Assembly: GCA_963783575.1 (NCBI GenBank)
Contig: CAWAOD010000011.1
Span: 32,001 to 96,000, forward strand
Direction: 5' to 3'
Source: an uncultured Spirochaetota bacterium
GTDB lineage: Bacteria > Spirochaetota > Brevinematia > Brevinematales > JAOACQ01
DNA: 64,000 bases
Positions within the stretch are counted from its first letter, which is position 1; each line of letters opens with the position of its first letter. The translations under genes and the position numbers were made by a program. The notes below the pieces were generated by a model, which had not been told where the DNA came from, ran no database searches, and saw nothing but the letters and a program-made list of their open reading frames with translations. Below, piece after piece: positions 12,258 to 37,221 of this stretch.

Positions 12258-12268
12258 GAGAATAGACA

Positions 12269-15555: not shown

Positions 15556-15909
15556 TTGTATATGTCAAAAATAAAAATATTATCAACCATTCTGCTTTTG
15601 ACTATAAGCAGTATTTCCATCCTGAATGTACAAACTAATCCAAATTATAGCCGAAGCATGATACGTGTCACATTTAAATCTTTTCCTTATCTCGATGACC
15701 CAGCTGGAATTTCTTATAACAGTTATGGTCAACTTGGTGATTTATCTGCATATGTTTTACGTATTTACGCTAAGGCAGCTTTGAACCCCTATATTTCCGC
15801 AATGGAGCAGTCGGAAAAGATGCTCGGGGTCGGTAATATAAGTGGTGTGACAGTGTTACCAGACTCTAAAATATTTGGCAAAATTCTAGTAGTACTTGTT
15901 AAAAGATAA
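15556..15909 (+). CDS. hypothetical exported protein; its last codons come from the Tn7-like left end
   Basis: ggagg RBS, hydrophobic N-terminus; stop lies inside the transposon end. Confidence 0.45.
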   Translation: MYMSKIKILSTILLLTISSISILNVQTNPNYSRSMIRVTFKSFPYLDDPAGISYNSYGQLGDLSAYVLRIYAKAALNPYISAMEQSEKMLGVGNISGVTVLPDSKIFGKILVVLVKR

Positions 15910-16131
15910 AAAAGTTGGAAACTAGATGTCTTGATTTATCAATGTTTTTGGGTATTTTATTATTTTTAATCTAAATATAAAGTTGGAAACTATTAGAACT
16001 TCAACATCCAAATATACTCATAAAACGAATAAAAAAGTTGGAAACTTTACTCAATAAATTATTTAAAAGCCATAAACACTTAGCAGTTTCAAACTATTTT
16101 GTTCAGATCCCAACTTTTTTTTCTATCTACA
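15897..16131. repeat. Tn7-like left end with three spaced AGTTGGAAACT sites, followed by an opposing internal end
   Basis: agttggaaact near 15913, 15981 and 16036; inverted sites near 16085-16115 ending ...tctaca at 16131. Confidence 0.8.
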
Positions 16132-17157: not shown

Positions 17158-18534
17158 TTAAAAATTGTTTGTCTCAATACCATAATCCGCCGATGCGTCG
17201 ACTGAACTGTAAGAATAAGCGGTCAACCGGGAAAGGTCTGCTGAAATATAAAGACAGGTCAGCGATAAGGGAGCGAAAGAATATGTGATATTCGTGTTGC
17301 CGAGGAGCCCTCCAGCAAAATTTAAAGTCACGGAATAAGGGGCCGTTTTATTCCAGTTTACACAAAAAACGCTGGCATCGCCTGCCGTGTTATTATAAGC
17401 GTAAATGCGTATATCATTTTCAGGTTCTGCGCAGAGAACCATATTTGCGAGGACATGACTGGCGAATAATTCGTAGATATAATAAATCGGCCTGGGTCTC
17501 CTTACAGGACTGGAATCCAGGAAACCCATCACGCTTCCGACTTCGCAGATATCAAATGGAACTACCCCCTGCATTCCTGGCTGGGAAGTTGACGCTCCAA
17601 GAAGATCGGCCATCCACAATCCCCCTTCATAAGTTCCCATGGAAGCTTCGGCGGTAGCTTTATTAGGGCTGCCATCCGCGCAAACATTGCATTCTCCTAT
17701 GATTAAAGGCCGTGGCTGACCGGAGCTTTCTATAATGCTGATTACAGCGGATTCAATATATAAGATGTAATCGAATTGATTCGTTACAAAATCATATGTA
17801 GCTGACAGATCGTCTGAAGGGTAGTAGTGAACTGAAACAGCATCAACATATTGGCCGCAGTATTGTAAAAATGGTTTTATAAAACCATAGCTTTGATAAA
17901 CGCTTGGGCCGGCGATTTTAATCCATGGGTACCTGCCTTTTATCGCGACGGCGACATTGGTATAGCTGTCAATATAAACATTAAAGTCAGCCACATCGAT
18001 ATTATAATAATCATCAGGCTCAGCCCCTATTTCGACCCATGAGAGAGGATAATGCATTATATCGATATAATAAGAAAGTATATTAGTCGCCCTTGCAACC
18101 CTTGCGGCTACGTTTGGTAAGCTTGAAAACGGCAGTGAAAACCAGGGCGTCGCCCCGATATAGGAGCTGTAATAAGCCAGATTATCCATAAATTCCGAAT
18201 CAACACTGTTATCGGAATCCCAGTCCGCCCCCGCACGGAGAAATTTGACATTAAGCGGCTTTATCAACGATTCCGTTCCATAACTCGCCTTCAATGTCGA
18301 GAACATTTCTCCAAAAAAAAGCGGGTTAATAGTACTGATAACGGTCGAAGGTATGATAATTGAAAGGGTGTTTGTAACCTGATACGCCGGATACTTAGGC
18401 GCGGACGTTGAAGAAGAAGCCGAAGATCCCTGGGATGAAGAACCCTGAGAGGATAATCCGGGCATGGAAGCACAAGATGATATATAAATCGCTGGAACGA
18501 GCAGTACAAAAAGGAAGAAAAAGCGTATCTTCAT
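17158..18534 (-). CDS. lipoprotein with a clan-A-like glycoside hydrolase domain
   Basis: lipobox ISSC and Ser-rich linker; WVEIGAEPD, IKIAGP, DAVSVHYY, LIIGECN motifs; beta-rich C-terminus. Confidence 0.65.
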   Translation of the reverse strand: MKIRFFFLFVLLVPAIYISSCASMPGLSSQGSSSQGSSASSSTSAPKYPAYQVTNTLSIIIPSTVISTINPLFFGEMFSTLKASYGTESLIKPLNVKFLRAGADWDSDNSVDSEFMDNLAYYSSYIGATPWFSLPFSSLPNVAARVARATNILSYYIDIMHYPLSWVEIGAEPDDYYNIDVADFNVYIDSYTNVAVAIKGRYPWIKIAGPSVYQSYGFIKPFLQYCGQYVDAVSVHYYPSDDLSATYDFVTNQFDYILYIESAVISIIESSGQPRPLIIGECNVCADGSPNKATAEASMGTYEGGLWMADLLGASTSQPGMQGVVPFDICEVGSVMGFLDSSPVRRPRPIYYIYELFASHVLANMVLCAEPENDIRIYAYNNTAGDASVFCVNWNKTAPYSVTLNFAGGLLGNTNITYSFAPLSLTCLYISADLSRLTAYSYSSVDASADYGIETNNF

Positions 18535-18556
18535 AATTCCCCTCCGATCTTACTTA

Positions 18557-18598
18557 TTGACAAGATGAAATAGTTAATTTATAATTCTATTTCATCTT
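18557..18598 (+). promoter_or_regulatory. consensus sigma70 promoter overlapped by a perfect 12-bp inverted repeat
   Basis: TTGACA(18557)-17 nt-TATAAT(18580); aagatgaaatag 18562-18573 / ctatttcatctt 18587-18598. Confidence 0.7.
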
Positions 18599-18647
18599 AT
18601 AAAAATATTCAATAAAATCGCCAATTATAATTTTTAGGAGTTTTTTT

Positions 18648-19613
18648 ATGAAAAAAAACACAACTGGTTTTTGCTCCTTTTTATTATTTTACATAGTGAT
18701 TTCATCGGCGATTTTTTCAGGATGTTCGAATTCGCCAGGTTCTTCTTCCAGTTCTTCCAGTTCATCCAGTTCTTCAATCTCGGGATCTGTCTGGACTGCC
18801 GAAATAATTCTTCCTACCAACCGCTGGAATTCAATAACTTATGGAAATGGAACATTTGTCGCTGTCGGCCGTGATACAAATTTAGCTAATACTTCACCTG
18901 ACGGTATAAACTGGACAGCGCAAACCATGCCAACAGGTACTAGCAACTGGCAGTCAGTTACATTTGGAAACGGTACATTTGTCGCAATTGCACAATTACC
19001 AACGGCGGCCGCGACATCACCCGATGGTATAAACTGGACGGCCGGGACACTACCCGGCTCAGACTCTTGGCAGGCTGTAACATACGGTAACGGCGTTTTT
19101 GTCGCGGTTACCTGCGGTACATCGGCCGCGACTTCGCCCGACGGGATAAACTGGACGGCAAGGGCACTTCCCGGCTCACACAACTGGAAGGCAGTCACTT
19201 ACGGAAACGGCATTTTTGTCGCGGTTGCCTGCGAAGCAGGAGCGGCTACCTCACCCGATGGTATAAACTGGACGGCCGGGACACTACCCGGCTCAGACTC
19301 TTGGCAAGCGGTAGCATATGGAAACGGCATTTTTGTCGCAGTTGCCTACGGTACATCGGCCGCGACTTCGCCCGACGGGATAAACTGGACGGCAAGGGTT
19401 CTTCCCGGATTAGGTTCCTGGCAAGCAATAGCATACGGAAAGGGTGTTTTTGTTGCGGTCGGCTGCGGCATGGGAGCGGCTACCTCATCCGATGGAGAAA
19501 ACTGGGCTTTACACGCCATGCCGGACTATATTTACTGGAAATCCGTGGCCTATGGAAACGGAACATTCGTCGCCGTTCCGGACGGTAATGTAGTAGCGGC
19601 GATTTCACATTAG
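18648..19613 (+). CDS. lipoprotein with about 39-aa WD40/BNR-like beta-propeller repeats
   Basis: lipobox FSGC, poly-Ser linker, repeated W..V.YGNG.FVAV...ATSPDGINWT. Confidence 0.8.
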   Translation: MKKNTTGFCSFLLFYIVISSAIFSGCSNSPGSSSSSSSSSSSSISGSVWTAEIILPTNRWNSITYGNGTFVAVGRDTNLANTSPDGINWTAQTMPTGTSNWQSVTFGNGTFVAIAQLPTAAATSPDGINWTAGTLPGSDSWQAVTYGNGVFVAVTCGTSAATSPDGINWTARALPGSHNWKAVTYGNGIFVAVACEAGAATSPDGINWTAGTLPGSDSWQAVAYGNGIFVAVAYGTSAATSPDGINWTARVLPGLGSWQAIAYGKGVFVAVGCGMGAATSSDGENWALHAMPDYIYWKSVAYGNGTFVAVPDGNVVAAISH

Positions 19614-19666
19614 ATAAGGCGGTTCCTGAATTTCGATAAACTGATAGCCTAAAATTATATTTTGGA

Positions 19667-20734
19667 GTGTTTTTTATGGAAAAGTGCGGGGCTGGTTTTT
19701 GTGCAGTTCTGATAATATATGTCTTTATAATATACGGTGGAATTTTATCGGGATGTTCAAATTCGCCAGGATCTTCATCAAGTTCTTCCACCAGTTCTTC
19801 ATCAAGTTCTTCGTCCGTTATATCTATGCCTGGTTCGACCTGGACGCCTCAGACGCTTCCATGTTATGCCGGCTGGAGTTCTGTTACTTATGGCAATGGT
19901 ATTTTTGTCGCGGTTGCAAATGGGAGTTCAACAGCAGCAACCTCTCCCGACGGGATAAACTGGACGGCAAGAACAATTCCTGAATCTGCCAACTGGAGTT
20001 CGGTTACATACGGGAACGGCCTTTTCGTTGCTGTTGCCAATAGCAGTACATATATCGGGGTGACAAATGCGGCGGCGACATCGCCTGACGGGATAAACTG
20101 GACGGTACAGAAAATGCCCTTTCTTCCAGAATATGCCGGATGGATTTCAGTCGCGTACGGAAATGGTATTTTTGTCGCAGTTGTAAATGAATTTGGAGGC
20201 AATTTAGCGGCAATCTCCCCGGACGGGTCAAACTGGACGGCCCAGACACTTTCAACAAATACCGGGTGGAGTTCGGTCTTCTATGGGAACGGAATTTTTG
20301 TCGCTCTTGCCAATACCGGTACAGGTATGGGAAATATTACGGCAACCTCCCCGGACGGGTCAAACTGGACATCCCAGACGCTTCCGGCCTTTAACTCTTG
20401 GGCTTCGGGCGTCTACGGGAACGGTGTTTATTTAGCAATTGGAGGCAACCCGACCTGGACTATATCATCCAATGGTATAAACTGGATATCCCAAAACATT
20501 TCGGCAGTCAGCTTCTATCCGATAGATTACGGCTGGATATCCTTAGCATACGGGAACGGTATTTTTGTAAGTATTGCAGACGGAAGTTCGGAAGCGGTGA
20601 CTTCAACCGACGGGATAAGCTGGACGTTCCGGACTCTTCCAACAAGCGCCGACTGGACATCGGTTACATACGGGAACGGCAAATTTGTTGCGGTTGCAGA
20701 CGGAAGCTCATTGGCTGCGATATCTTCCAATTAA
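19667..20734 (+). CDS. paralogous beta-propeller repeat lipoprotein
   Basis: LSGCSNSPGSSSS N-terminus shared with the upstream gene; same repeat unit. Confidence 0.8.
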   Translation: MFFMEKCGAGFCAVLIIYVFIIYGGILSGCSNSPGSSSSSSTSSSSSSSSVISMPGSTWTPQTLPCYAGWSSVTYGNGIFVAVANGSSTAATSPDGINWTARTIPESANWSSVTYGNGLFVAVANSSTYIGVTNAAATSPDGINWTVQKMPFLPEYAGWISVAYGNGIFVAVVNEFGGNLAAISPDGSNWTAQTLSTNTGWSSVFYGNGIFVALANTGTGMGNITATSPDGSNWTSQTLPAFNSWASGVYGNGVYLAIGGNPTWTISSNGINWISQNISAVSFYPIDYGWISLAYGNGIFVSIADGSSEAVTSTDGISWTFRTLPTSADWTSVTYGNGKFVAVADGSSLAAISSN

Positions 20735-20814
20735 CATCTTGTTTTACGGCTGTTTGATAATAAATATTCTATTAATTAGAATTTTGTTAACAATCGTTAT
20801 TTTAGGGGTTTTAT

Positions 20815-22272
20815 ATGAAAACAAGATTTTCTGGCTTTTTTATTGCCCTTATTTTATTAGTGCTTTTGTCATGCTGTTCATTAGCGCAGAGTGGAGGAAG
20901 TGGAAGTAGCAGCAATATAGGCGGCAGCAGCAGCAGTATCACAACCAACAGCTTTAGCTCATACACTAATAGCGATGGTGTTATCTATACTAATACAGGG
21001 ACTTATTGGATTTTATCATCGGGCGCCATCACAAGCGGAAATATTACAATTCTATCAAATATCAATGGGATTCCTGTAAACAGCATTGGTGACTACGCAT
21101 TTTGCGTTTGTACTAGACTTACAAACATTAATATTCCTCCCAGTATTATAAGCATCGGTTATGAAGCATTTGCTTATTGTTCCGGTCTTAGCGGAATAAT
21201 CATACCCTCCGGCATAAAAAGCATCGGCAACAGCGCATTTTATTCCTGCAACAATCTTATAAATGCTGAAATACCGACCGGTGTTACTAACATCGGCGAT
21301 TACGCATTTGCGTACTGTTCAAGTCTTACAAGCATTACCATCCCATCAGGCGTTACAAGCATAGGTAATAACACATTTTGGAATTGCACCAACTTAACCG
21401 GGATAGTCATCCCCTCCAGTATTGCAAACATTGGCAGCTACGCATTTAATTCCTGCACCAGTCTTACAAATATTGTCATCCCCTCCGGCGTTGCCAGTAT
21501 AGGTAATTATGCGTTTACATACTGTTCAAGTCTTAGTGGAACAATAAACATTCCCTCCGGAGTCAAATATATCGGAGCCGGAACATTTCAGGAATGTTCC
21601 GGTTTAAATAGTGTCAACATTCCCTCTGGCGTTTTAAGCATCGGCGACTTCGCATTTTATGGATGTTCCGGCCTGACCGGTATAGCCATTCCATCCAGTG
21701 TTACAAGCATTGGAAACGAAGCATTTTCAGGATGTACCGGTTTTACCAATATCATCATCCCCACTGACGTTATGAGCATAGGTTACTGTGCATTTTTTGC
21801 ATGTTCAAACGCAACCGGCATAACCATCCCCTCAGCCGCCACAAATATTGAGTATGACGCATTCTGGGGATGTTCCGGTATGACTGGAACTATAATCATA
21901 CCTTCAGGCGTTAAAAATATCGCAGACGGAACATTCCAGGGATGTTCCGGTGTTACCGGCTTCATTATTTCCACCGGCGTTACAAGCATTGGCACGGAGG
22001 CTTTTTCTTCGTGCAGCGGCTTTCCCGGCATAACCATCCCATCTAGTGTTACTAACATCAACATGCTGGCATTTTTTGGCTGTTCAAGCCTGACCAGCGT
22101 CACTGTTCAAGAGACTACTCCTCCGGCTTTGCAATTAGGCTCAGGGGGAACAGCAGGGGCATTTAACAATTGCGCCGGTGGATTGCAGCTCCATGTCCCT
22201 TCTGGATGTGTTTCCGCTTATCAGACGGCGACCGGGTGGAGTTCGTATTCGAATATAATAGTTTCGCCTTAA
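20815..22272 (+). CDS. BspA-type leucine-rich-repeat surface lipoprotein
   Basis: many 23-aa IPSGVTSIG..AF..CS.LT repeats; signal peptide ending LSCC; Ser/Gly linker. Confidence 0.9.
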   Translation: MKTRFSGFFIALILLVLLSCCSLAQSGGSGSSSNIGGSSSSITTNSFSSYTNSDGVIYTNTGTYWILSSGAITSGNITILSNINGIPVNSIGDYAFCVCTRLTNINIPPSIISIGYEAFAYCSGLSGIIIPSGIKSIGNSAFYSCNNLINAEIPTGVTNIGDYAFAYCSSLTSITIPSGVTSIGNNTFWNCTNLTGIVIPSSIANIGSYAFNSCTSLTNIVIPSGVASIGNYAFTYCSSLSGTINIPSGVKYIGAGTFQECSGLNSVNIPSGVLSIGDFAFYGCSGLTGIAIPSSVTSIGNEAFSGCTGFTNIIIPTDVMSIGYCAFFACSNATGITIPSAATNIEYDAFWGCSGMTGTIIIPSGVKNIADGTFQGCSGVTGFIISTGVTSIGTEAFSSCSGFPGITIPSSVTNINMLAFFGCSSLTSVTVQETTPPALQLGSGGTAGAFNNCAGGLQLHVPSGCVSAYQTATGWSSYSNIIVSP

Positions 22273-22499: not shown

Positions 22500-22845
22500 T
22501 GTTGACGGATAAAATAGTTTTGCACTGGATCAGGCAAATATCAATCGATTATAAAGCAATTTCTTAATATCATGTGAAATAAAGTTGTGCACTGGTAAAT
22601 TCAGTAGAATGAATTAATATTAAAAAATCATCGGGCACTCTCATATACAATAAGTTAAGTTTCCTCGCGTAAAAGCCCATGAACCTTCAAAATTCAAGAT
22701 GACTAATTCAGTACACAACTTTTTTGTTCTGTAAACAACTTTTTTGGTCAGGGAACAACTTTTTTGTCCTCTGACATCAGTTCATAACTTTTTTATATAC
22801 TTCACAACTATCTTATTCAGTTCACAACTATTTTATAAACTCACA
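22500..22845. repeat. cluster of internal Tn7-type ends (one left-type, two right-type)
   Basis: TGTTGACGGATAAAATAGTT at 22500; three 20-bp-periodic acaacttttttg sites ending ...ctgaca at 22776; three ttca(c/t)aact sites ending ...ctcaca at 22845. Confidence 0.8.
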
Positions 22846-23839
22846 CCACCATTTTATCACTTGGTCTAATATGCCAACTTTCGACTTCTATTATCCAAGA
22901 GGGATTAATAATCTTATCATAGGGATTTTGAATAATAATTGGTTCATAATTTGGTGTTTCTAAATGAATTCTATCAACTAAATACAAAAAATATTGATCT
23001 TTTTTAAGTTTAGCAACATCTACCTCATTTCTTGACCAATAAAAATTTAGCCTTTCAGCAAATGATTTTACTTCAATATATTTGTCGATCAATTTTGATT
23101 CTTTATTTAGAAATGAAACAATATCATATCCAGCATTTACATCTATTTTACTGATGATTTTAATCTGATCAATAAAATTATGATCATTCAATCTTTGAAG
23201 TTCATAAGTTAGTACAAAATCTTCGGCATCATCTCCAAGTTCTGATTTGTATAATTGTAACTCTCTAAGACGTTCTAATGAAATAGTAGTTTTATTATTT
23301 TTAGAATAAAGTATTAAAATTGGAATGATTTCTTCTACAAAGTACTTAAGATACTGGATACTGATCAATAAAGTACTTGAAGTTCTATTATAAACAAAAA
23401 AACCGATACTAATTAATAAATTTCTTATTCCTGAAAAATCAAGGGGTATTAAATTCATACCAATAGAAGCCGTTGAAGCTATTACATCAAATTTAATCTT
23501 ATTAATATCAAGGAACCTATCAAGAACATTGTTATCAATGAATTTCTGAAATAATATCTTCAATAAAATTATTTTTAGATCATCATCATTTTTTTCTTGT
23601 GCATATAATCCAAATTCACTTAAATAAACTTCTCCATTCGAGTCTATGATCACCCAAGTTAAAAACTCAAGCAAATCTAACACACCTTTATAACAATAGG
23701 CTAGTTCTACTGATTGCCCTATACAATATCTTTCAATATCAACAACTTTCATTGATCGAGATGATAAAAGATATTTAAAGAGAAAAACAATAGATTCAAA
23801 AGAACCAAAATTATTGTTTTGTTGAATTTTGTGAAACAT
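22841..23839 (-). CDS. DUF3883 (NO VEIN C-terminal)-like PD-(D/E)XK nuclease domain protein
   Basis: LGDDAEDFV...GYDIVSF...YIEVKS...FYWSRNE. Confidence 0.75.
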   Translation of the reverse strand: MFHKIQQNNNFGSFESIVFLFKYLLSSRSMKVVDIERYCIGQSVELAYCYKGVLDLLEFLTWVIIDSNGEVYLSEFGLYAQEKNDDDLKIILLKILFQKFIDNNVLDRFLDINKIKFDVIASTASIGMNLIPLDFSGIRNLLISIGFFVYNRTSSTLLISIQYLKYFVEEIIPILILYSKNNKTTISLERLRELQLYKSELGDDAEDFVLTYELQRLNDHNFIDQIKIISKIDVNAGYDIVSFLNKESKLIDKYIEVKSFAERLNFYWSRNEVDVAKLKKDQYFLYLVDRIHLETPNYEPIIIQNPYDKIINPSWIIEVESWHIRPSDKMVV

Positions 23840-25783
23840 AATTGTTTATTAATGCCATAATATCATCCAAATCTGTATTTTCATTTAACCTATTAAATAA
23901 TGGTATTGGTTAATGTTCGATAATTTTTATCATACGCTCCTCTTTAAATATCAATCTATTATGGATTGTTCTATCTGTATTGTTATCTGATAGTAAATAA
24001 TAATAGTTTATTTTATCTCCTTTTTCTAGCCCATAACGATGGATACGATCTTTTGATTGAATGAAATGTGCAGCATTAAAAGTTCTTTCAATGTAAATTG
24101 CAGTATGACAAGCTTTATGTAATGAGATTGACTCTGAAATAGCGAAGGGATTTGCAATGATCACTTTAAATTTACTTTGCGGATTATGAAATTATTTAAC
24201 TATACTTTCACGCGTAGATTCAGAATTGTTATCATCATCTTGTTCAACAGGTGTAGCTCCATATAAAGTCTGATTCTCGATCCCAATAGATGATAAATAT
24301 TCTGATAGATCAAGAATATTTTTTATGAATATAGCCCAAACAATTATCTTCTCTCCTTTCTCAATCAATTTTTTTAACATCTCACCTAAATATATGAATT
24401 TCCTAGGTACTTCTAATTGATCATACGATATGATCTTTTGTATTATTAATGAATCATCAATAAAGGTTTCCATACTAATCTCTTCTTCATCAAAAAAAGT
24501 ATCTATTGGTTTTTGCAATAATGCTGGATTTGTTGATACTTGCATTAGTCTTATAAGACGAGCTTTTGTAAGAGCGTTCATTAGATTTTTTGTGGAATTT
24601 TTAGCTTTAAAAAATTCATATATTTATTTTCAATAAAGTTGTAGATTTCTCTTTGAACTGGCCCCATAGACACAATTATCGGTTCATTTTCAATAGGTTC
24701 GGGTATCTTTAAATCACTTTTACGAATACGTAAGAAAAAAGGGGAAATATTAGATAAAAGTTTTGATATACGAGGATCATTTGTATTTTGAGACATATCC
24801 TTAAGCTGATAAGGATAAAAATTTATAATATTTTTTGTTGGCCAAATAAATTGAAAAAGATTATCCATATCCTCATACCCATTTGGCGCAGGGGTACCGG
24901 TCAAAACAACCCTTGACTCACAATATTTTGATAAAGTCAACACAGAATTAGCAATTATTCCACCTTCAATATTTTTTATTTTGTGTGCTTCGTCAAGTAT
25001 GACCATTGTTCGATATTTTTTCAAGAAAAAAATTATATCATCTAATATTCCAGGTACGCCTAGATATGATAATAATGTTAATTCAGCAGGATAAGAAGAA
25101 TATAAGTGCTTTATACGTTCTGATTTAGGGACCCCTCCTGATATTCTCTTTGAGGATGGCTTATGACCAAAGCATTCAAAATATTCATTCTCCCAAGGTC
25201 CAAAAGAACTTAATGGTCCTATGATCAACAGTCTGTCAATCTTTTTCGGGTCATTATCAGGCAATGTTTTTAGATATGAATATGCTCCATAAACTATACT
25301 TGTCTTACCAGATCCTGGTACCGAAAAATTACAAGCATTTTGAGAGAAAGCCAAATGGTAAGATGATAGTAACTGAAGTGGATATAATCTTCTAGAGGGT
25401 AAATTTATGATTAGACTATCTGTAAACTTTTTAAATTGATTCAGTTGTAAATCGTCCAACTGATTGTTTCGAATATCAAAAGCTTGCTTGGAGAATAACT
25501 TAAAATTTTCTTCCTCTTGATAATAATCCCGAAGAATTTCCTTTATTGTTGACGTTGTACTTTCTGTAAAACCAAATTTTTGCAATAATTTCTGAATATT
25601 TTGTAAGACAACTTCTTTTTCCTCGGTTTCAAAAGGAATTTTAAGATGATCTTTTACTTCAATAACATGTAAATAATCCCGTAAATATATCAAAGATCTT
25701 CGATTCGATATAAGATTAATAATATCTCCTGAAAGAATATAAAGATTCTTCTGAGTATCAATATCAATTTCAATTACTGGCAC
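23808..25783 (-). pseudogene. SNF2-like SF2 helicase/ATPase, broken by one frameshift and two in-frame TAA codons
   Basis: SVPGSGKT, ILDEAH, LTGTP and QSKDRIHRYG motifs across ORFs 24581-25783, 24192-24581 and 23910-24164. Confidence 0.85.
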
Positions 25784-27070
25784 TTTTTCTTCTCTTTGCT
25801 ATCATTTTTTTAAACTCATAAGTAATACTATTAATTTCACATATTTTACTTTCTACATCAGAAGAATAAAAAGATTCGGTATCAGTATTTAAAGAATTCA
25901 ATGCATTTAATGCTTTTACTAGTAGTTCCATAGGTTGGTCTGATTTATTTAAGTCATCTAGTCTGCTTTTAGCTTTACCCAAATTCTCTTTAAGCTTATC
26001 TTCTACTAATTTTTCCCAATCCTCATCTCTACCTGAAAGTATTTTTGAAAGATCGGCTTTAGGGTTTTCTTCACGTAATTCTTCAATCGGTTTTTCTTGA
26101 ATTGTCTCAATATTATTCTTATGATTTTCTTCAAATTCTTTCCAAACTTCTTCGCGACTAAATATACTTTCATTTTTACTTGGTTTAGCTATGTTCCGAA
26201 ACTCTTTTCCTTCATACTGAGCACGAATATAATCATAACAGATTGATTTCAAAACGGATAAATCTAACTCACTATAGGGCCATTCGATAGGAGTACTTTT
26301 ATTCTCATATCGTTCCATATAACCACTTAGATTAACAAACTGGCCTTCTCTTTTATCAAGCCTTGTATAAATGCCTTCATATTTCAAATAGGAAAGATAA
26401 TCGTTCATCATTTCCATGATCTTTAACCATTCTTTTATTTGATTTTTGTCCGTGGCCATCATTTTGGCAATATCTGATTCTTCGAAACCAAATACTATCT
26501 TGAGATCTTTGCACCTTAAATATTTTTCGATTGGATTGTAATCAACCTTCTCGTCTTCCCCCATTTGATATTCGGTCTCTAATTTTACTATCTCTTTGGT
26601 TTCTGCTCCTTCAGGAAGTATTGCAGCGATAAAATATTTACAATTTTCAACATTATTATTATTTTTATTATGAATTTCTCTTGCAAGATATATTTTATTG
26701 AGAAGCATTGCTCTCCGATTTCCATCAATGATCATTCCGTCATTAGTGACAATACCATATATTCTCTGTCCATCTCTTATAAGACTATCCTCAGTGTTTT
26801 TATTTCTATCTAATTTCGAATCCCATAAGAATTTTTCAATGATCTTTTTATCATCATCTTTTTCAGCATCCAAAGGATGATCTTGTTTTTCAAATGATTT
26901 CACGAGGCTGCCAATACGACCGTTGTATTTATTATATATCAAATATTCAAGAGGGATTTTAAAAACATTAAAAGGACTAACACCTTTATAATTAATCCTG
27001 ACACCGGTCATGTATGGTGTATCATTTGCTTGAATTTCAGCCAGCTTTTTTACCCTGACTCTTTTGTCAT
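25770..27070 (-). CDS. ParB/Srx-like domain protein with a helical C-terminal region
   Basis: GQRIYGIVTNDGMIIDGNRR motif; own ggagg RBS and ATG at 27070, one base out of frame with the 739-aa ORF. Confidence 0.6.
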
Positions 27071-28692
27071 TTATTCCTCCTAATTCCATATTTGAAATAA
27101 TCAGTTTCATAGTATAATAACCAATTATGATTGATTTTGGAACAGGATAAGGGATATCAGTGATCATGATTTCTCTTAAATTTTCTTTATTTAAAAAAGA
27201 TATCTTTATAAATTTCTTTACTTCTTCTAGTAATTCATTTGGTCCCATTAAATTATTTTTCTTACGATCTTTTGCTATCATACAATATACTTCTTGAAAT
27301 TTACTAAAGTTATAATCCTTACAAAGGATTCTTTTGCTAAAGGAATTGATCAATTGAAATTCAGTGTCTGTGAAAGCTGATGATTCAATTTCTGGAGTAT
27401 ATTGTGTTGCTTTCTTTCCTTGACTTCGATGTATTTCGACATCCCATTTAAACACTTTATTTAAAAAATCAGAATGATGATTAGTTAATTCAACGCGAAA
27501 TGTTTTTAATTTCAAATAAGGGATATGATATTTGAACCTACTATTAGGCAATCTTGGTTTTTCTTTAGTTATTTTTAATGTTTTATAGTTTAGATTAATA
27601 AAATCTTGATCATTATATCTTTTAATTGGAATATACCTATCATTTGCCAACATAGTTTTTTCTTCTTGTACTATTGCAGATGCAAATGCGTAAGCCATTT
27701 TTGGAGGAACTGCATTACCAACTTGTTTATATTTAATACTGATGCTTTCACCATAGAATAAATAATCGATCGGGAAGCTCATTAAACTAGCCACTTCTCG
27801 AATTGTAGGAGCTCGATATTTACTAATATTAAATCCTAATATCATTGATTCTCTAGAACTAAATGTCAATGTTGCCATCACGGTTCTTGCAGGTTTGTTA
27901 GTGTTTTCAGGGAAAGACATCCTTCCCATATAACCCTTATCTTTTTTTAAGCCTTTCAGCTTTTCTCCATTGATATTTCGCAATCTCATGGATATAATGA
28001 TGGTCTGTCATATTTGATGATAAAATTGAAAGGTTTTTGTAATTAGGATCATTGACAATATTATCCAAATTTTGATTTGGATTACCTAAAGAATCAAGAA
28101 TCTTTTTTAAAGGAATAAGTTCTTGATCACATTGAATAATATATGAAGGTTTAGGAAATTCTCCACAAATAAACCGTTTTCTTCTGGATGGTACACCAAA
28201 ATATTCTGCATAATAAACATGACTGTTATCATTCTTAACAGTTAAAATAAAATTTCCATCACAGTCAAGTTCTGCAGCAGTATAGTTATCTTGAACGAAA
28301 TTTTGGATATTTGGAACATTTTCCATAATCCAATACTTTAAAATTGAATCTTTTTTATATTTCTTTCTTGCAATAATACGCAAAAATGCCTTGACAAGAC
28401 TGACTCCTTTAGATTTATCTGCTTTACCAGATTTATTAGAATTTGAAAAAGCGACACAAGGAGGGGAACCAATTATTATTTCAGAGTCAGGGATTATATC
28501 ATTAAATTCCTTTTCTGGAAGCATTGATAGTTTAACAACATCTCCCTGATAAGTATAACACGTAGGGTGATTAGCTCTATGAGTTTTTACAGCTGTTGGT
28601 GATATATCTATAGCCCAGATTATCTCGAAACCAGCATTTCGAAAACCCTCAGAAAAACCTCCAGCTCCACAAAAAAGATCAACTACCCTCAA
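27040..28692 (-). CDS. C5-cytosine DNA methyltransferase with a long C-terminal extension; frameshift in an A-run near 27945
   Basis: DLFCGAGG, GSPPC, MENV, PSRRKR, TIREVASLMSFP and QVGNAVPP motifs. Confidence 0.9.
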
Positions 28693-28713
28693 AGTATTTC
28701 TCCCAAGATGACA

Positions 28714-29166
28714 TCATCCATAAATTTTTTTTACTTGATCAATATACAACTGTATATTATTATTAATCTTACACTCCCACATCACCAATACTTTCCATCC
28801 TTTATCTTTGAGTTGTTGTATTTTAAAATTATCTCGTTCAACGTTTTTTTTAAACTTAGAAATCCAAAAATCTGTATGAGATTTTGGAATAGAAGGATTG
28901 CAAAAAGGACATCTGTGCCAAAAACAGCCATTTACAAATATGGCAATCTTTCTGCCAGGATAGCAAATATCTGGTTTACCCGGCACTTTTCCCCAATGCA
29001 ATCTATAACCTTTCATTTTATTAACAAAAAGGCTCTTTCTTAATATTATTTCTGGTTTAGTGTTTTTATTCTTTATTGTACTCATTATTCTTGATGTTAT
29101 TTCTTTTTCAGGAATAGGTGCTCGACCATCCCTTATGTATTTATCGCGCATTAAATTTAATATCAT
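28714..29166 (-). CDS. vsr: very short patch repair endonuclease
   Basis: SRIMSTIKNKNTKPE, GKPDI, FVNGCFWH, GWKVLVMWEC. Confidence 0.92.
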   Translation of the reverse strand: MILNLMRDKYIRDGRAPIPEKEITSRIMSTIKNKNTKPEIILRKSLFVNKMKGYRLHWGKVPGKPDICYPGRKIAIFVNGCFWHRCPFCNPSIPKSHTDFWISKFKKNVERDNFKIQQLKDKGWKVLVMWECKINNNIQLYIDQVKKIYG

Positions 29167-29381: not shown

Positions 29382-30983
29382 TTAAATTATAGAAAAATAA
29401 TTAATAATTATTTCCTCAATCCTTCTTCCCCAATCTTCAATACTTTGTCCTTTGACATGCTTAACAAATTTATATTTAAGACCTTCCTGCCTATTTAGAA
29501 AAGCAGTATTCCAGTGAAAATATTTATCTGCTAACATATTCAGATTATCAATAATTACATTACTATAATCATTAATTTCAAATCTGAATTGAAAAACCAA
29601 GGTAGATGCTGATTCACCATTTATTCGATTGATCTCAACAAGATAACATGTACCTATATCACTACCATCAATTCGGACAACAGTGCAGATCCTGCCGTCA
29701 CTGGAAATCCTTTTTTTACTATAAAGATTAATGAAAGTAATGGATATTTCCCAGTTTTTGTGTTTTTTCCGGATATAATCAATAACATCTAAAAAGTCTT
29801 CCAGACCTGGAAAAGTTTTATCCGCCAATCGGTCAAATGATAAAAACTCAATCGACCTGATCTGCCCGCCCCTTGTCCAATCCCTGACAGTTCCAATCAA
29901 TTCAGGCGATACATTTGAAGGTCCCTCTTGTGATGTTTTTCTGGCTTTATATTTATTATCCCGATCCCGTATTTTTATAACGATAGGTGCTCGTTTAAAA
30001 CTTGCTCCTAAATGACCGGATGTTACTTTGACAGTTTTTTCCCACCTGTTCGCGTCTTCTCCGGTCTCGTCAGGAAATATTTCCGGAAAACCATCAGAAA
30101 CAGATCCATTTTTATTATTTCCATCCGGGACATCTTCAAATACCGGTTGAATAAGATTAGGGGATTTGTATTTTATTTCACTGAAAGGATGCACTAACCG
30201 CTTTCTTTCAATTAGTTCTAATATAAGGAAAATGTCATTATATTTCAATCCCCGGTATCGCCAGATTTCACCAGGAATCACTGGAGGATCTGTTACAACA
30301 GGTATTCCATAAGAAAAACCTTTCCTAGGGTCACCGTATCTCCTTATTGCCTCAATATAAATGTTCCTATAAACAGAACACCAGGCATTATACCCTTTTT
30401 CATAAAAACGCAGCCAGGTAAAATATGAAATGGCATCATCCCTGAGTAAAATTTTAGGAAAATCAGGGGTTAATGTTATTTCCAGATTTTTATTATTAAT
30501 ATTATAAGATTCGATGAAAAAATCCAATCCGCTTGTTTCAAGTATCCGGTTTGCAAGAAGCCGGTAAGGAGTTAGAATTTTGCGGACTATTTCCATATAA
30601 GGAATATAATAATTAATTGAAGATATTTTAAAACTGCAAAGTAACTGGTTCCTGTAAAATGTATTATTATAAAATGGGTACAATTCCTTTGGAATATCTA
30701 ATCCTGAATTTTTGCTGAAATCAACATCACCTGGGAATATCAGAATTCCTCCTGAACCGGAAGCTTCAGATATAGCAGTTCCGTCCATATATTTACACCC
30801 TGTGCGAAGTATTGGCAAATAACCAATGGGTAGTCTTTCATCACTGAAACTCCCGTCCTGTCTTCTAAAGAGAACCCTGATATCCCATTGCTGCTCACTG
30901 TTCAAGACCGGTGAGCCAAGCCAGTATAATTCCACTTTATCACCAGGATCGAAATTCCAAGGAGTTATCCTAAAACCACTCAT
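29382..30983 (-). CDS. tnsE: TnsE-like Tn7 target-selection protein
   Basis: 533 aa, directly after tnsD; C-terminal R...VVRI...YLVEI.R...SASTL...W...VKH pattern resembles the TnsE C-terminal domain (by eye). Confidence 0.65.
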   Translation of the reverse strand: MSGFRITPWNFDPGDKVELYWLGSPVLNSEQQWDIRVLFRRQDGSFSDERLPIGYLPILRTGCKYMDGTAISEASGSGGILIFPGDVDFSKNSGLDIPKELYPFYNNTFYRNQLLCSFKISSINYYIPYMEIVRKILTPYRLLANRILETSGLDFFIESYNINNKNLEITLTPDFPKILLRDDAISYFTWLRFYEKGYNAWCSVYRNIYIEAIRRYGDPRKGFSYGIPVVTDPPVIPGEIWRYRGLKYNDIFLILELIERKRLVHPFSEIKYKSPNLIQPVFEDVPDGNNKNGSVSDGFPEIFPDETGEDANRWEKTVKVTSGHLGASFKRAPIVIKIRDRDNKYKARKTSQEGPSNVSPELIGTVRDWTRGGQIRSIEFLSFDRLADKTFPGLEDFLDVIDYIRKKHKNWEISITFINLYSKKRISSDGRICTVVRIDGSDIGTCYLVEINRINGESASTLVFQFRFEINDYSNVIIDNLNMLADKYFHWNTAFLNRQEGLKYKFVKHVKGQSIEDWGRRIEEIIINYFSII

Positions 30984-30987
30984 TTTC

Positions 30988-32571
30988 TCAGCCTACCTTA
31001 TCTATAGAATAAGTATGATTGGAATATCTTTTTATTTCTTCTTCTATTTCTTCATTAATCTTTGAAGAATAACCCGGTCTGATCCCTGCTTTACGTATGA
31101 TTTCCCATTTTTGTAAACATTTTCCATCAGAATTTAATTCTGCGGCAACCCACCTGATCCTTCTTATCCTGAATTTTTCCACTGATTCTGTAACTTTTTT
31201 TATATATACCATTGTATCTGGCATTTTATCGGGATGTCTATTAAGCCAGACCCGTGCTCCGGATTTTCTCCCGATTACATTTACCGTTATTCTTTCCGGT
31301 TTTAACTTACTTTCAAGCATCGCTTTTGTAATAAGTTTTGCTTTTACAAGGGTTTCCCTATCCCTCCGGGTCCAGTCGATTCTATGTGGATTATATTTAT
31401 TTATAACAGAGCATGGGGAAATATTATCCAGCCAGGCTTTGTCGTTCCTGATAAGCCAGGAGAATGTTTTATGTTTTTTGTTTGCCAGGATTGTTCTATT
31501 TACACCGGGATATTTATTTATTATGTCTACCCATTCATTCCTGTATTTTTCCTGTTCCGGAATGTTACAGGATTGTGTTTCATGAAAGCGTTGTTCGGTT
31601 TTTATCTCGTTTAATTTAAGCCATTTTATTTTAAAAAAATTCCTGGAATCCCCGCACAAATAGCGCATCATAAGAAGATGGCGGACAGGATGGAATGATT
31701 TCTCATGTTTTCTTATTATTTTTATCGGCCAGCTGTGAAGATCGGCAATTGAGAAATCCGATTGAACCATTCTGAGAAACTCGCTTCCATAATAATTATG
31801 GAGATCATTTATAAACTCGTTTAGGAAATGTCTCCTGTCTTTCTTTTTTATTAAACCTCGATCCGCAAGTAAATAAAGGTACTTGCGCCTGAAACCCTCT
31901 TCAATATCCTGCGATCTCCTGATTATTTCATAGTTATCATAGACCCATTGTATATCAGCCGCTAATCCATCAAGTTTCTCAATAATTTTATCCCCAAACA
32001 ACACATTTTGGGTATTATCCGGATAATTATCCGGGCTTGCTTCTGAAAATTCATTCTTTTGATCCGGGTGAATCCTAAAAGAACTATAATGAAGGACTTT
32101 CTTATGGTCCGGGCAAATCAGTACTCCGGGAGTATTTTGGATCCGGTGCCAGTAATATTCCCCATGATTTAAAAGATCTTCCCTGCAACAATCCGGGCAG
32201 AATTGAAAAAAGGGAAATATATGGACTGAACTTACCGTGATACCTGTTTTTATGTAGATATTCCCTCTATAGGGCTTTCCCATGGTTTTGTATACTGATT
32301 TTGCTCTGATGGCAGGCAAAAAGGCTGTATAAAATGGATAAAGAGTATGGTTTATTATCAAATCTTTCTTTGTTAATTGATTGTAAAATGGTAAATTCCG
32401 GACGAGATAATCAATATGGCAGGGCGGATCGACAGAAGCAATAAACCTTGGATTTCCAAACAATTCCCGGGTTGTTGTCCTGAAAAAGATATTTCCGCTT
32501 CGGATATGAGCTCTCGCTACGATACTATATAACAACTCTCCTTTGTAAGGTTGTGGAAAATAACACAGCAT
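30988..32571 (-). CDS. tnsD: TnsD/TniQ target-selection protein
   Basis: YFPQPYKGELLYS, HTLYPFY, FCPDC, YWHR...CPDH zinc finger, RIDW..RD. Confidence 0.9.
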   Translation of the reverse strand: MLCYFPQPYKGELLYSIVARAHIRSGNIFFRTTTRELFGNPRFIASVDPPCHIDYLVRNLPFYNQLTKKDLIINHTLYPFYTAFLPAIRAKSVYKTMGKPYRGNIYIKTGITVSSVHIFPFFQFCPDCCREDLLNHGEYYWHRIQNTPGVLICPDHKKVLHYSSFRIHPDQKNEFSEASPDNYPDNTQNVLFGDKIIEKLDGLAADIQWVYDNYEIIRRSQDIEEGFRRKYLYLLADRGLIKKKDRRHFLNEFINDLHNYYGSEFLRMVQSDFSIADLHSWPIKIIRKHEKSFHPVRHLLMMRYLCGDSRNFFKIKWLKLNEIKTEQRFHETQSCNIPEQEKYRNEWVDIINKYPGVNRTILANKKHKTFSWLIRNDKAWLDNISPCSVINKYNPHRIDWTRRDRETLVKAKLITKAMLESKLKPERITVNVIGRKSGARVWLNRHPDKMPDTMVYIKKVTESVEKFRIRRIRWVAAELNSDGKCLQKWEIIRKAGIRPGYSSKINEEIEEEIKRYSNHTYSIDKVG

Positions 32572-32574
32572 ATC

Positions 32575-34098
32575 TCAGCCTGCTTTGATAAACTCTTTTA
32601 CAGGATCTTTTATAAATCCAGCTTGTTTTAATGCTTCATAAGCACTTAACCCTTCTTTTTTTGCTTGCTTTATTATGATCCTTAGATCATTATTATCGAT
32701 TTTAGGACTTTTATTTATAGGATTACTGTTGTCATAAGCTTTTATCTGTTTTTCTTTACTTGTTTTACAGTTCCTGTTTTTATTTATACTCCCTCTTGAT
32801 TTGATATTGTCGGTTAAAATTATTTGTGATGCAGTACTGTTTATTCTATTTTCACACAGCTTATTTATATCCAGCGGAAGTAGATCTTCAAAATTGGAAA
32901 TGGTCCTATAATCTCCTGATTTAATCGCTTTTAACATAGGTTCAAGAAAGCTAAGACTTTCCCTTGAAGCACTTCTGACAACACTTGGAGTAAGTTTTTC
33001 TTTGCCGGAAATAATCGCCTCGACCTGCGAAAGAATAAAAAGCTTTACTGTTACATCTACAATGCCTTGGCTTAATTCATAGAATAGATCAGACATTCCT
33101 TCAGTTAATGGTATAGAATCTTTGGACCATTGAAATTTCCAGAATCCTTTTAAAAGTAAATCCCACCATTCATTTTTCTTCATATTCTCCCAGATCACGC
33201 TTCCCTGTTGTCCGGTACTGCGCCTTGCCTGTCTGAACTCGCCCTGGAGTATTGGCAGCGCTTTATTTGTCCCAATCAATATAATAGGAACACCAATAGT
33301 ATTCACTAAATTGACAAAAAAATTCAGCATTTTCTCAGAACCCCTGCTTTTTGCCGCACTTAAGTGCTGGATTTCATCAATTACAAGAAGCCCAAGACTT
33401 TGTCTTTTTGCTAACTGTGCCATCCGGGGGATCATCAAATCAGTTGTTGTATTATGTCCTGAAGCGAATTTGTTATATGTATTTTCTCCAAGAAGTTCGT
33501 CAAACTGCATAAAAAAACTTGAACACAAACCTTTAATACTACCGTCAAGCGGGCATTCAAGCTTCATCCAGACCAATTGATAATGCTGTAAAGGCTGATC
33601 CTCATATAAATTGTGGACAATAACACGGGGATATAAAGCCAAAATCTTTTCAATTGCTCTTGACTTTCCCACACCTGAATAACCAATAATTGTAAATCCG
33701 GAAGCGGATGAAGGCGAAAGATTTACCCCTTCAAACCTGCTGTCCTTTTCCTTTAAGGCTTTATAAAGCTGATGCATATCGGCAGCATAAGCCGGTTTGA
33801 TCGGATTTCTGGATATGTATCCCTGCCGTATAGCAGATGATATTTTATTTTCTATTTTAAGATGAATATCCCAGGGTTGAAAGAAATTACACAGTCTCTT
33901 GACACATTCTAAACGGAAATGGGGTTCAAGCAATCTTTCAGATTCATTGAAATCTGGATAATACTGTAGATGCTTTACTGCTTCTTGAAAAGACATCATA
34001 GGTGGAAGGGCTTTTATCAGCGGATTAGAATTGAATTCAGGCAGAACCTGTTCAGTATATATCGCTTCTTCTGGTTCAAAGCGGGATTCATTATTCAT
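32575..34098 (-). CDS. tnsC: TnsC AAA+ ATPase
   Basis: Walker A GYSGVGKS, Walker B LLVIDEIQ, FRQARR. Confidence 0.92.
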   Translation of the reverse strand: MNNESRFEPEEAIYTEQVLPEFNSNPLIKALPPMMSFQEAVKHLQYYPDFNESERLLEPHFRLECVKRLCNFFQPWDIHLKIENKISSAIRQGYISRNPIKPAYAADMHQLYKALKEKDSRFEGVNLSPSSASGFTIIGYSGVGKSRAIEKILALYPRVIVHNLYEDQPLQHYQLVWMKLECPLDGSIKGLCSSFFMQFDELLGENTYNKFASGHNTTTDLMIPRMAQLAKRQSLGLLVIDEIQHLSAAKSRGSEKMLNFFVNLVNTIGVPIILIGTNKALPILQGEFRQARRSTGQQGSVIWENMKKNEWWDLLLKGFWKFQWSKDSIPLTEGMSDLFYELSQGIVDVTVKLFILSQVEAIISGKEKLTPSVVRSASRESLSFLEPMLKAIKSGDYRTISNFEDLLPLDINKLCENRINSTASQIILTDNIKSRGSINKNRNCKTSKEKQIKAYDNSNPINKSPKIDNNDLRIIIKQAKKEGLSAYEALKQAGFIKDPVKEFIKAG

Positions 34099-36256
34099 TT
34101 TTCCTTTTTAAACCTTCTTCCTGCATTTTTCTTATATATTCAATATTGATAATATTCGTTGATGTATTATCCTCTTCCTCTATGCTGACATTATCAATGG
34201 AGTTCGGTTTTTTATCTTCTTTTCCCAGAATAAACGATTCTTTTTTTCTATTGACCAGTTTTTCATTTGCTCTGTTCTCTCTGATACCTCTTATGCGCGA
34301 AGCTTTACTGGCCTCTGGAAAAATATTTTTTTCTGTTTTCTTCTTTGATTTCTTTACAATATTCTCAAGTTCCGAAATCAGATCAACCTTTGACTGTATT
34401 ATTACACCTGCATTTTTCTGTCTGTTTAATTTTTCATACGCTTCCAGATAATCAAGTTCTTCAGCCGTTTTCCCAATAAACCCCTGGCCTTCAATTAGGT
34501 AACAGACATCATAATTCCGTCCGTCTTCTAACCTAGCATAAATACGGTCTAAAATCCTGGGATCATATGATATATCAATCTTCCAGCTTCCTCTGCTTCT
34601 TGCTTTTTCAAACCAGTGTTCTGAAATTGCCCTGTCACTTTTGTAATACCTTGTTTTAAATTTTATTCCCTTCTCTGTTACAGTTGCCGAAGCAGCAGGC
34701 ATTAAACTGAGCTTTACAATTTCATCTGGAGTTGACCGGAGGCTGCCGGACCTATGGATAATACCCCAGTTCCATATTTGAATTGGAATAGGATCAACAT
34801 TTCCTGCTGCTAATTCCTCATCCCTGCTATAACTATCCATCCAGTTATGATTATTATGATAAAGGACACAGCGTATTACCATTTCTGTAAACTCGCTGAT
34901 ATCCATCTTTGCGTCCAGTCGGTAATCCTGGCCGCCCCTTTCCCTGAAATCAGTGTCTATATATCCGGGCGCCAACGGTTTGACTTTTATATTAAGAGTC
35001 CTGAAATACTGTTCTACAATACCTTTCCAATCAGCCCTGTAAGGAGGGGTATTTTCTATTTTTACATGGAGGGTATTGATCAAGGTATCAATGTTTTTCC
35101 CTTCCATCTCGCCCCTGTCAGCCAGGATCGATTCCGGAATACCACTGCATGGCCAATCTTCTTCTGTAATATTAATTCCATAGTCCCTGCAGAACTCAAC
35201 CTTATCTGAAGCTGCGTTTGCAAGTGCCATCATCGCTCCAATCCATGATGGTCCTTCCAGGCCCACATAAATTCCTGCTACCATTCTCGAAAAAACATCA
35301 ATAATAACATAAATTACAGGGCGCCCTATTATCCATTCCCTGTTAATACTTGAAACCAAATAAATATCACCTACAGTCGCGTCTATTTGGTACTTAGCCC
35401 CTGGTCCCAGATTACCTTTATCGGATTTTCCCAATATTGCTCTGTGCTGAAGTTAATATTTTTTCGCTCCTAGTCTTGAAGACAATATTTTTTTAATATT
35501 CTGCTCTTTTTGAAACCAGTATTTAAATTGCGTAAATGACGGAATTTCTTTTATTGGGTACAATAGTGCCTTTTTTATGCCATTCTCCATTACGAATCCA
35601 TCGGTATAAAATTTCTTTACCATCATATGATAAGCGTCAACCAGGGAATTTTTTTTCGGGGTATTATAAAAATTACTTATAGCAACTCTAAAATTTCTCT
35701 TTGCAGCTTCATCAACATTTGTTCCATGGATGTTGAGATTTTGGGTCTTTCTGGGTCTTCCTATTTTCTTTTCGCCTAGAACTTTATCTTTTCCTTTTCC
35801 TCCGGATTTCCAATAATCCGGTAGAAGTGCATTTTTATTCTTTCCCCTCTGCCAGTACCTTCGAAGGTATTTATAAATATATTTTTTCTGGATACCATGT
35901 TCATTTTTTATTTCATTAATAATAGAGCCTCTTTTTTCACGGAAATATATTTCAGGTTCGTTTGACACTGCATTCTCAATTATTTTCCAGGATTTATCAC
36001 GGATAGTTTTTGATTTCGAATTGATTGATTCTTCTAATATTGCAATGGAAAATGGATCGTCCACAGTAATCTGAATCATTTTTTTCTCAATTTCTTCAAG
36101 TATAAAATCATGGTCTTTTATTTCGGGGAGGGCTTTATTGGATTGGATATCTATGGTAACAATTATACTATTGTCAACCCATAAAATTCTTTCAAAATTT
36201 ACTATGCCCTTTTCATTTATCAATTTTAAAATTTCATTCACTATAGGAATTTTCAT
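34091..36256 (-). pseudogene. tnsB: TnsB DDE transposase with an in-frame TAA at 35453-35455
   Basis: YLRRYWQRG N-terminal piece; QIDAT, IDVFSR, ADRGE and KGIVE motifs; both pieces share one frame. Confidence 0.9.
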
Positions 36257-36263
36257 GCTAACC

Positions 36264-37090: not shown

Positions 37091-37154
37091 CCTTCCGTCC
37101 TCTGTTATTCTTGATGCTATTTCATGATCGGATATACCCGGAGCAGAATATTAT

Positions 37155-37221
37155 AGTTTCCAACTTTTTTATCTAGTTTCCAACATTATTATTCAGTTTC
37201 CAACTATTTTATATTTCTACA
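37155..37221. repeat. Tn7-like tnsA-proximal end with three 20-bp-periodic TnsB sites
   Basis: agtttccaac three times, ending ...tttctaca. Confidence 0.9.

Follow-up and report, generated by a model that had tools for sequence, protein, structure and literature searches.

A ParB-SNF2 cassette linked to a C5 cytosine methyltransferase on a Tn7-like element: a likely distant relative of AbiR

What kind of system is encoded when a methyltransferase gene runs straight into genes for a ParB-like protein, an SNF2 ATPase and a nuclease? The question is raised by a 64,000-nucleotide stretch of contig CAWAOD010000011.1 from an uncultured Spirochaetota bacterium (the window). At positions 22841-29166, on the minus strand, the window carries five genes in the order vsr, C5 cytosine methyltransferase, ParB-like, SNF2 and NOV_C/DUF3883. 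A sequence-only reading had noted five co-oriented, abutting or overlapping AT-rich genes directly downstream of a tns cluster, and this arrangement is confirmed: the genes abut or overlap, have a GC content of 29.5% (vs ~37% in most contigs) and follow tnsA-B-C-D and a tnsE-like gene. It had also proposed that they form an undescribed defence operon. We put the probability at about 0.5 that intact cassettes carry out methylation-gated restriction through a chain of reader, clamp, motor and effector, in the manner of AbiR from Lactococcus lactis; a defence function of some kind we predict with considerable confidence.

The conserved four-gene unit

Below, loci that were opened carry L-numbers and genomes G-numbers, G000 being the window's genome. 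A single ParB protein used as query found no relative locus; a ParB alignment used as query did. The ParB-like family has 1,734 relatives among 5,876 candidates (90% clustering) and 1,791 relatives among 1.84 billion representatives, with 294 clusters at 50% identity and E values up to 1e-30. Counts are given for the best 80 of 233 confirmed loci (233 of 263 pattern hits in species genomes), a set chosen by similarity with near-copies included.

SNF2 directly follows ParB in 75/75 loci with room for it (in L043, ParB is shortened), and an effector with a shared N-terminal domain follows SNF2 in 74/74. A C5 methylase is present in 75/80 loci; the five without one (L051, L055, L057, L059 and L075) are 2-7-kb contigs. 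Vsr occurs in 25/80 loci, and in 16 of the 44 having at least 6 kb on both sides. The proposed five-gene unit therefore holds for four genes, which are syntenic over many phyla, and fails for Vsr. The conserved unit is C5 methyltransferase, ParB-fold protein, SNF2 ATPase and effector, with Vsr as an accessory. Hosts span about a dozen phyla plus one archaeon and include Bacillota, Bacteroidota, Chloroflexota, Acidobacteriota, Pseudomonadota, Caldisericota, Saccharimonadota, Actinomycetota and Methanolobus. In the window's own phylum, the ParB alignment matches 3/401 genomes, its own included (2/400 others); none of 11 genomes of the host's family match, and in the window's genome each of the five genes was found only once.

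The Vsr very-short-patch endonuclease is intact (28714-29166, minus strand; PF03852, E 1.6e-19). Vsr repairs the T:G mismatches that deamination of 5-methylcytosine (5mC) leaves. The C5 methyltransferase lies at 27070-28692 (minus strand, 3' end approximate), as placed by PF00145 matches in two frames and tblastn against the loci L002 and L005. In relatives it has ~540 residues; its PC and ENV motifs are present in 50/50, and its gene often overlaps that of ParB. A long form with an extra C-terminal domain of ~170 residues is found in 52/80 loci. In the model of the L002 methylase (pLDDT 91.9) this extra domain is confidently folded, and it was found on C5 methylases alone (41/41 matches). By hhalign it has no similarity to the restriction-fold protein described next or to the N-terminal domains of the effector and SNF2 proteins. 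Leads from the Atlas were all below 0.9, and fold searches with the whole methylase model covered residues 1-346, that is, the part outside the extra domain. Complex prediction for the L002 ParB and the extra domain scored 0.00 in two runs, which counts neither way.

Another 24 loci, the sister clade, have a methylase of a different family and, before ParB, a DpnII/BanI-like protein of restriction-enzyme fold. Acidic residues of this DpnII/BanI-like protein are replaced, as judged by eye in 22 true members, and it occurs together with the extra domain in 0/80 loci. Four loci have short methylases, two of them with a MutH/Sau3AI-like and one with a BglII-like enzyme (L035, L053, L039). The gene beside ParB-SNF2 is repeatedly methylation-linked: a long methylase, a DpnII/BanI-like, Sau3AI/MutH-like or BglII-like protein, a Type III Mod/Res pair or a sigma70-like gene. 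Apart from NOV_C, which may or may not be site-specific, the window's cassette shows no stand-alone endonuclease of the kind that Type II restriction-modification (R-M) pairs with the methylase. RGATCY, considered as a target site on grounds of avoidance, was rejected, its depletion being 0.64 in 34 long-methylase operons and 0.65 in their flanks.

The third protein (~430 residues; approximately 25770-27070, minus strand, start out of frame) was assigned to the ParB/Noc fold, with a helix-turn-helix (HTH) and a helical tail, from a structure model (pLDDT 92.8) and fold searches. Foldseek matched it to ParB 7bnk (E 2.9e-4), and VIA gave a tied top pair, 6ryk (Z 9.4, rmsd 2.5, 95 aligned) and 5k5d (Z 9.4, rmsd 4.0, 209 aligned); the top matches are ParB, Noc, KorB, PadC and pNOB8 ParB. 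A DGNRR motif, present in 86/87 proteins, aligns with the GERR of ParB, and the HTH aligns too. A search of PDB sequences with the ParB profile returned nothing useful. With a modelled ParB/Srx fold, a nucleotide motif and an HTH, the protein is a candidate CTPase clamp. It resembles the CTP clamps ParB, Noc and KorB in fold, in the GxxR-type motif, in an E-x-x-x-Q aligned near ENxQR and in its HTH, but differs in its ~430 residues with a long helical tail, in lacking a ParA partner and in sharing 10-17% identity with them.

The SNF2-family ATPase (23811-25783, minus strand; ~655 residues in relatives) is broken in the window and was placed by PF00176 (E 1.5e-18) and alignment to L002 and L005. 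Among 73 full-length relatives, Walker A is present in 73, DE[AS]H in 71 and motif VI in 73. The effector (22841-23839, minus strand) is an open frame in which an N-terminal domain of ~165-170 residues precedes a NOV_C (DUF3883) nuclease of the PD-(D/E)xK fold (PF13020, E 7.2e-13). Its GYD..EVK motif is shared by 64/72 relatives with a NOV hit; in methylase, SNF2 and NOV_C alike, catalytic motifs are thus intact in relatives. The effector N-terminal domain is shared by 74 proteins, of which 64 end in NOV_C, six in TIR (L012, L022, L023, L037, L041 and L045) and four are cut or broken. The TIR loci group on a single branch (support 82) in the ParB tree, which was built by a quick method and midpoint-rooted; the L041 protein matches PADLOC ThsB1 (E 3e-45).

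These parts bear on whether the cassette serves defence at all. Partition, repair or regulation of a mobile element would suit a ParB fold with an HTH, but the cassette has no ParA, its effectors are a nuclease and TIR, and the window's tns proteins have no match in L001-L083. Such a role is hardly to be expected.

Odd architectures were also seen (P0271, P0274, P0147; L033:13325-14584; L072:12147-13643): Vsr-methylase fusions (694 residues), another fusion of a methylase tail to ParB, a second ParB-like gene past the effector and an effector that carries a peptidase S24 domain as well.

AbiR and other known systems

Is the cassette a known system under another name? As had been anticipated, it has no full match among the PADLOC 2.0 or NCBIfam models. 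The ParB protein matches no Pfam, NCBIfam or PADLOC model, so that annotation would present such loci as orphan methylases. No description of the four-gene cassette turned up in the portions available of the literature searched (PMC3632139, PMC10853773, PMC12839542, PMC11529989, PMC3710099, PMC13712998, bioRxiv 2024.10.26.620412 and PMC8765062). The cassette is unnamed in the libraries and literature searched. "Undescribed" was nevertheless too strong a word, since AbiR is in print (PMC13064643 and PMC13712998, in the sections available) and loci of AbiR build carry homologues of the cassette's ParB and SNF2.

As presented in the accessible part of a 2026 review (PMC13064643), AbiR of L. lactis pKR223 consists of AbiRa, AbiRb and AbiRc, has ParB-like and SNF2 subunits, requires the LlaKR2I methylase, is toxic without it, lowers phage replication and is classed as an abortive infection (Abi) system. 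Its AbiRb was superposed on 5K5D, one of the tied top structural matches of the cassette ParB. A methylase-dependent ParB, SNF2 and nuclease system named AbiR is also in the DefenseFinder wiki, according to the excerpt available of PMC13712998.

Distant relatives of the cassette lead towards the same system. Among 72,556 plasmid records, 70 match the cassette ParB at ~30% identity, and seven loci were opened (L081-L087). In three of these, on plasmids of lactic acid bacteria (L081, L083 and L086), a Type III Mod/Res pair stands directly before ParB-SNF2. L082 and L084 have PLD-SNF2 proteins with dcm and Vsr; L087, whose placement in the ParB tree is unreliable, has ParB-SNF2-DUF3883 with Vsr and dcm. 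A sigma70-like gene lies near ParB-SNF2 in L084, L085 and L160. Among genomes, G242 combines sigma70-like, ParB and SNF2 genes, and G215 combines ParB, SNF2 and NOV_C with Vsr and dcm. L084 holds every part that the available text of the review lists for AbiR (PMC13064643).

Like AbiR, the cassette places a ParB-like protein beside an SNF2 ATPase, with a nuclease domain and a linked methylase. Its ParB-like subunit corresponds to that of AbiR by fold and by homology to the AbiR-build loci, whose ParB proteins are 27-30% identical over 220-320 residues (E 1e-19 to 1e-27), and its SNF2 ATPase (29-32% identical to theirs) corresponds to the AbiRc core. The two also differ. The effector of the cassette, NOV_C (or TIR), is encoded by a gene of its own, whereas the nuclease of AbiR is the N-terminal domain of the SNF2 subunit. 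The cassette methylase, with its extra domain, belongs to another family (21-29% identity to those of AbiR-like and Sau3AI-like loci), and a long, well-supported branch separates the ParB proteins. No nuclease is fused N-terminal to SNF2 in the window type (~655 residues, no PLD match), PLD-SNF2 having been seen in L082 and L084 alone. Three stand-ins for the sigma70-like subunit AbiRa, taken from AbiR-build loci, matched nothing in G000 (89.9% complete) or in L001-L080. No AbiR-named match was returned by PADLOC, even for proteins of AbiR-build loci, or appeared among 120 listed homologues.

Set against the description of AbiR and against look-alike loci, the cassette is not filed as AbiR, because neither the sigma70-like subunit nor a nuclease fused to SNF2 was found. 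Judged from homology, the cassette is likely a distant relative of AbiR, and we see in it a variation on AbiR, not a category of its own; since distant ParB-SNF2 homologues (~30%) sit in AbiR-built loci, the idea of such a cassette is not wholly new.

The PLD-SNF2 relatives in L082 and L084 also invite the explanation that the system is a modification-dependent, Type IV-like restriction enzyme with the methylase as an independent neighbour, as PLD + SF2 enzymes such as SauUSI are described, in the passages available, as cutting methylated DNA. Yet a motif-intact C5 methylase is tightly linked to the cassette (75/80), often by gene overlap with ParB, and families of 5mC readers gave no match in family scans of the window and relatives. 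We consider this explanation very unlikely.

Other multi-gene systems share parts of the design. DISARM class II and Druantia type II likewise have a C5 methylase in an operon with a helicase-like ATPase, but the window's genes give generic methylase- and helicase-domain matches only, none to specific subunits. The system-specific core subunits are DrmB, DrmC and DrmE for DISARM, DruE for Druantia, ZorAB for Zorya and PglZ for BREX. For the core subunits of DISARM II, Druantia II, Zorya I and BREX, PADLOC and NCBIfam yielded only partial methylase and helicase matches far below cut-offs (for the N-terminal part of the methylase, among the best 25 of 56 families). Closer in working parts is Hma (HmaA-HmaB-HmaC), in which, according to the sections available of PMC11232893, an SNF2 ATPase acts with a NOV_C nuclease and the NOV_C of HmaA is a nickase required for defence. 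HmaA is a single fused protein that defends alone; the cassette instead has two genes, separate and overlapping in the window and relatives, plus ParB and a C5 methylase. The ATP-dependent R-M systems CglI and NgoAVII, as far as the available parts of PMC4267653 and PMC5737866 describe them, combine a methylase, an SF2 motor and a separate nuclease, a likely working principle here too. They use a DEAD-Z1 motor and a site-reading R subunit, in contrast to the SNF2 motor, NOV_C and ParB fold of the cassette.

A proposed mechanism and its main rival

From the parts, folds, motifs and linkage described above, we infer the following chain. The C5 methyltransferase would mark host sites, and Vsr, where present, would mend T:G mismatches. 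A reader would then recognise the same site when unmethylated. In the window's subtype this reader is probably the methyltransferase itself, with the extra C-terminal domain as the link; in the sister clade the restriction-fold protein, whose catalytic residues are altered, would take this part. At the site, the protein of ParB fold would load as a nucleotide-switched clamp, presumably using CTP, and would engage the SNF2 ATPase, which would move along the DNA and activate the last protein through its conserved N-terminal domain. NOV_C would then cut DNA, and the TIR variants would harm the infected cell.

Both the TIR effectors and the comparison with AbiR raise the main rival: a guard or abortive-infection module in which ParB-SNF2-effector, instead of restricting foreign DNA directly, kills or stalls the cell once host methylation or a partner R-M system has been lost or is inhibited by a phage. 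TIR replaces the nuclease in six loci, AbiR is toxic without its methylase and is classed as Abi (PMC13064643, in the part available), and ParB-SNF2 also occurs attached to Type III and Sau3AI-like R-M systems that look complete and can do without another nuclease. However, restriction likewise predicts toxicity without the methylase, nucleases make up 64 of the 74 effectors, and the long methylase is the partner in 52/80 loci, a separate restriction-enzyme-like gene having been noted in just one (L023). On balance we find this rival somewhat unlikely.

Apart from the way the 80 loci were chosen, several points weigh against methylation-gated restriction of the AbiR kind. At the profile level, the third protein matches chromosomal ParB only weakly (hhalign probability 46%, E 2e-4). 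The mutual exclusion of extra domain and restriction-fold protein is, as read from the sequences, one event, because the restriction-fold loci form one clade. L085 and L160 have no methylase within the stretch read. The tie to AbiR runs through look-alike loci at 27-35% identity, together with the description of AbiR.

A broader proposal, which we make only tentatively, is that ParB-SNF2 could be a plug-in immunity engine, a CTP-switched sliding clamp with a chromatin-remodeller-type motor, that couples interchangeable methylation readers to interchangeable effectors. AbiR would be one member, and the window's subtype would be a C5 restriction system in which the methylase doubles as the specificity subunit. 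If this is true, the readers would include a methylase equipped with a docking domain, a restriction enzyme that has been disarmed, Type III Mod/Res and an AbiRa-like protein, and the effectors would be NOV_C, PLD and TIR. Should the ParB fold work as a nucleotide clamp, self/non-self discrimination would have taken over a mechanism of chromosome segregation. The mechanism of AbiR is still open according to the portion available of the 2026 review (PMC13064643); many intact, compact four-gene versions exist with natural swaps of reader and effector in culturable, harmless strains, which makes that question directly testable. Intact cassettes are found, for example, in Paenibacillus (L004, L006), Fictibacillus (L026) and, with a TIR effector, Pedobacter (L037).

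The window's copy and its transposon

Alignment to the intact relatives L002 and L005 (38-61%) places five breaks in the window's copy, three frame slips and two in-frame TAA stops. A slip at ~27945, at a run of seven A, splits the methylase into the two frames matched by PF00145, and another at ~27065 fuses the methylase tail to ParB, giving an apparent open reading frame of 739 residues. The SNF2 gene has a slip at ~24612 and TAA stops at 24192-24194 and 23910-23912, both opposite a Glu of L002 and L005. As background we took 288 proteins from 400 kb of the relative G006, of which 131 matched G000 well (148,857 bases). These 131 conserved genes have 10 frame changes and six internal stops, an upper estimate, since it includes one place twice as well as several stop rows that resemble non-coding frames. 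In the 6.3 kb of the cassette, five breaks were observed and 0.68 expected (Poisson P ~7e-4; slips alone P 0.009, stops alone P 0.027). Homopolymer density is slightly higher in the cassette than in the genome, and rpoC is open. In the transposon, tnsA has a frame break at ~36400 and tnsB an in-frame TAA at 35453-35455.

The five breaks far exceed the assembly background, and tnsA and tnsB are broken too; the window's copy is therefore likely dead, a decayed pseudogene cluster, which bears out the earlier suspicion that it may be inactive. Two observations count on the other side. The assembly shows indels of its own (10 frame changes in 149 kb), so single slips in the cassette may be assembly errors, and a check of the reads (one run, share 0.08) gave seven short contigs, none across a break. 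The stronger claim that all breaks are sequencing errors was downgraded after the alignments to relatives, the background rate and the breaks in tnsA and tnsB. As only the Vsr and effector frames are open here, the system would be inactive in this genome, and the window's copy, being broken, is a poor object for study.

The setting of the cassette on a Tn7-like element had been suggested from the sequence alone, and the element's ends were found. It spans 15897-37221 (21.3 kb), with the cassette inside, and has tnsABC with TniQ/TnsD, TGT ends with TnsB sites and an identical 5-bp flank on both sides, the target duplication. The left end (15897-16050, plus strand) has TGT at 15897 and spaced TnsB-site-like repeats; the right end (37150-37221, minus strand) has TGT and three such repeats within the last codons of rlmD (TIGR00479, above cut-off). 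The genes tnsA, tnsB, tnsC and tnsD and a 533-residue gene in the tnsE position occupy 29382-37090 on the minus strand (Pfam: TnsA, Mu-transposase C, TniB/AAA_22, TniQ/TnsD). The tnsE-position gene (29382-30983) has a homologue after tnsD in G019 (E 6.9e-97), no match in Pfam or in a PDB sequence search, and no homologue in the 11.5 kb read from G011. Because the window's tns proteins are unmatched in L001-L083, the transposon is the vehicle of this copy and no part of the system.

A selfish addiction module, which would use post-segregational killing to maintain mobile elements and provide defence only incidentally, would account for the cassette's presence on a Tn7-like element here and on plasmids and for its patchy occurrence in genomes. 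But addiction has no need of an ATP motor, a clamp fold or exchangeable effectors, and the window's copy has decayed while the element remained. This explanation seems unlikely.

In G011, of the same family, a tnsABC-tniQ-tnsD element begins one base past the rlmD stop, and its TnsD is 55% identical to the window's; the 3' end of rlmD is therefore the likely TnsD target site. The two elements (window 37209-37221; L157:9028-9142 in G011) lie at the 3' end of rlmD, ~20 bases past conserved EML codons. A paper naming a Tn7 insertion site at rlmD/rumA did not turn up in the literature searched. An rlmD homologue also lies 1-3 kb upstream of the cassette in L009, L024, L049 and L063, without tns matches. 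A related element in G019 adjoins a gene other than rlmD; the cargo beside it (L158:7548-13574) is a different cluster, of C5 methylase and Vsr with three unidentified genes (788, 553 and 189 residues).

Four additional Tn7-type ends lie within the window's element, at 16131, 16255, 22500 and 22845, none with matching 5-bp flanks, which suggests repeated or nested insertions. The last two form an internal pair (22500-22845) in which six sites face left from 22845 and two face right from 22500; the end at 22845 provides the stop codon of the effector gene. The element's other cargo (17158-22272) consists of lipoprotein-like genes whose linkers are rich in Ser, and of genes for repeat proteins, for an LRR protein of the BspA type (PF13306, E 2e-115) and for a weakly GH39-like protein. 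Further broken mobile DNA lies to the left of the element (4900-7028 and 11591-15233): a Type I methylase gene and a Tn3 transposase, both split, together with a fragment of an integrase.

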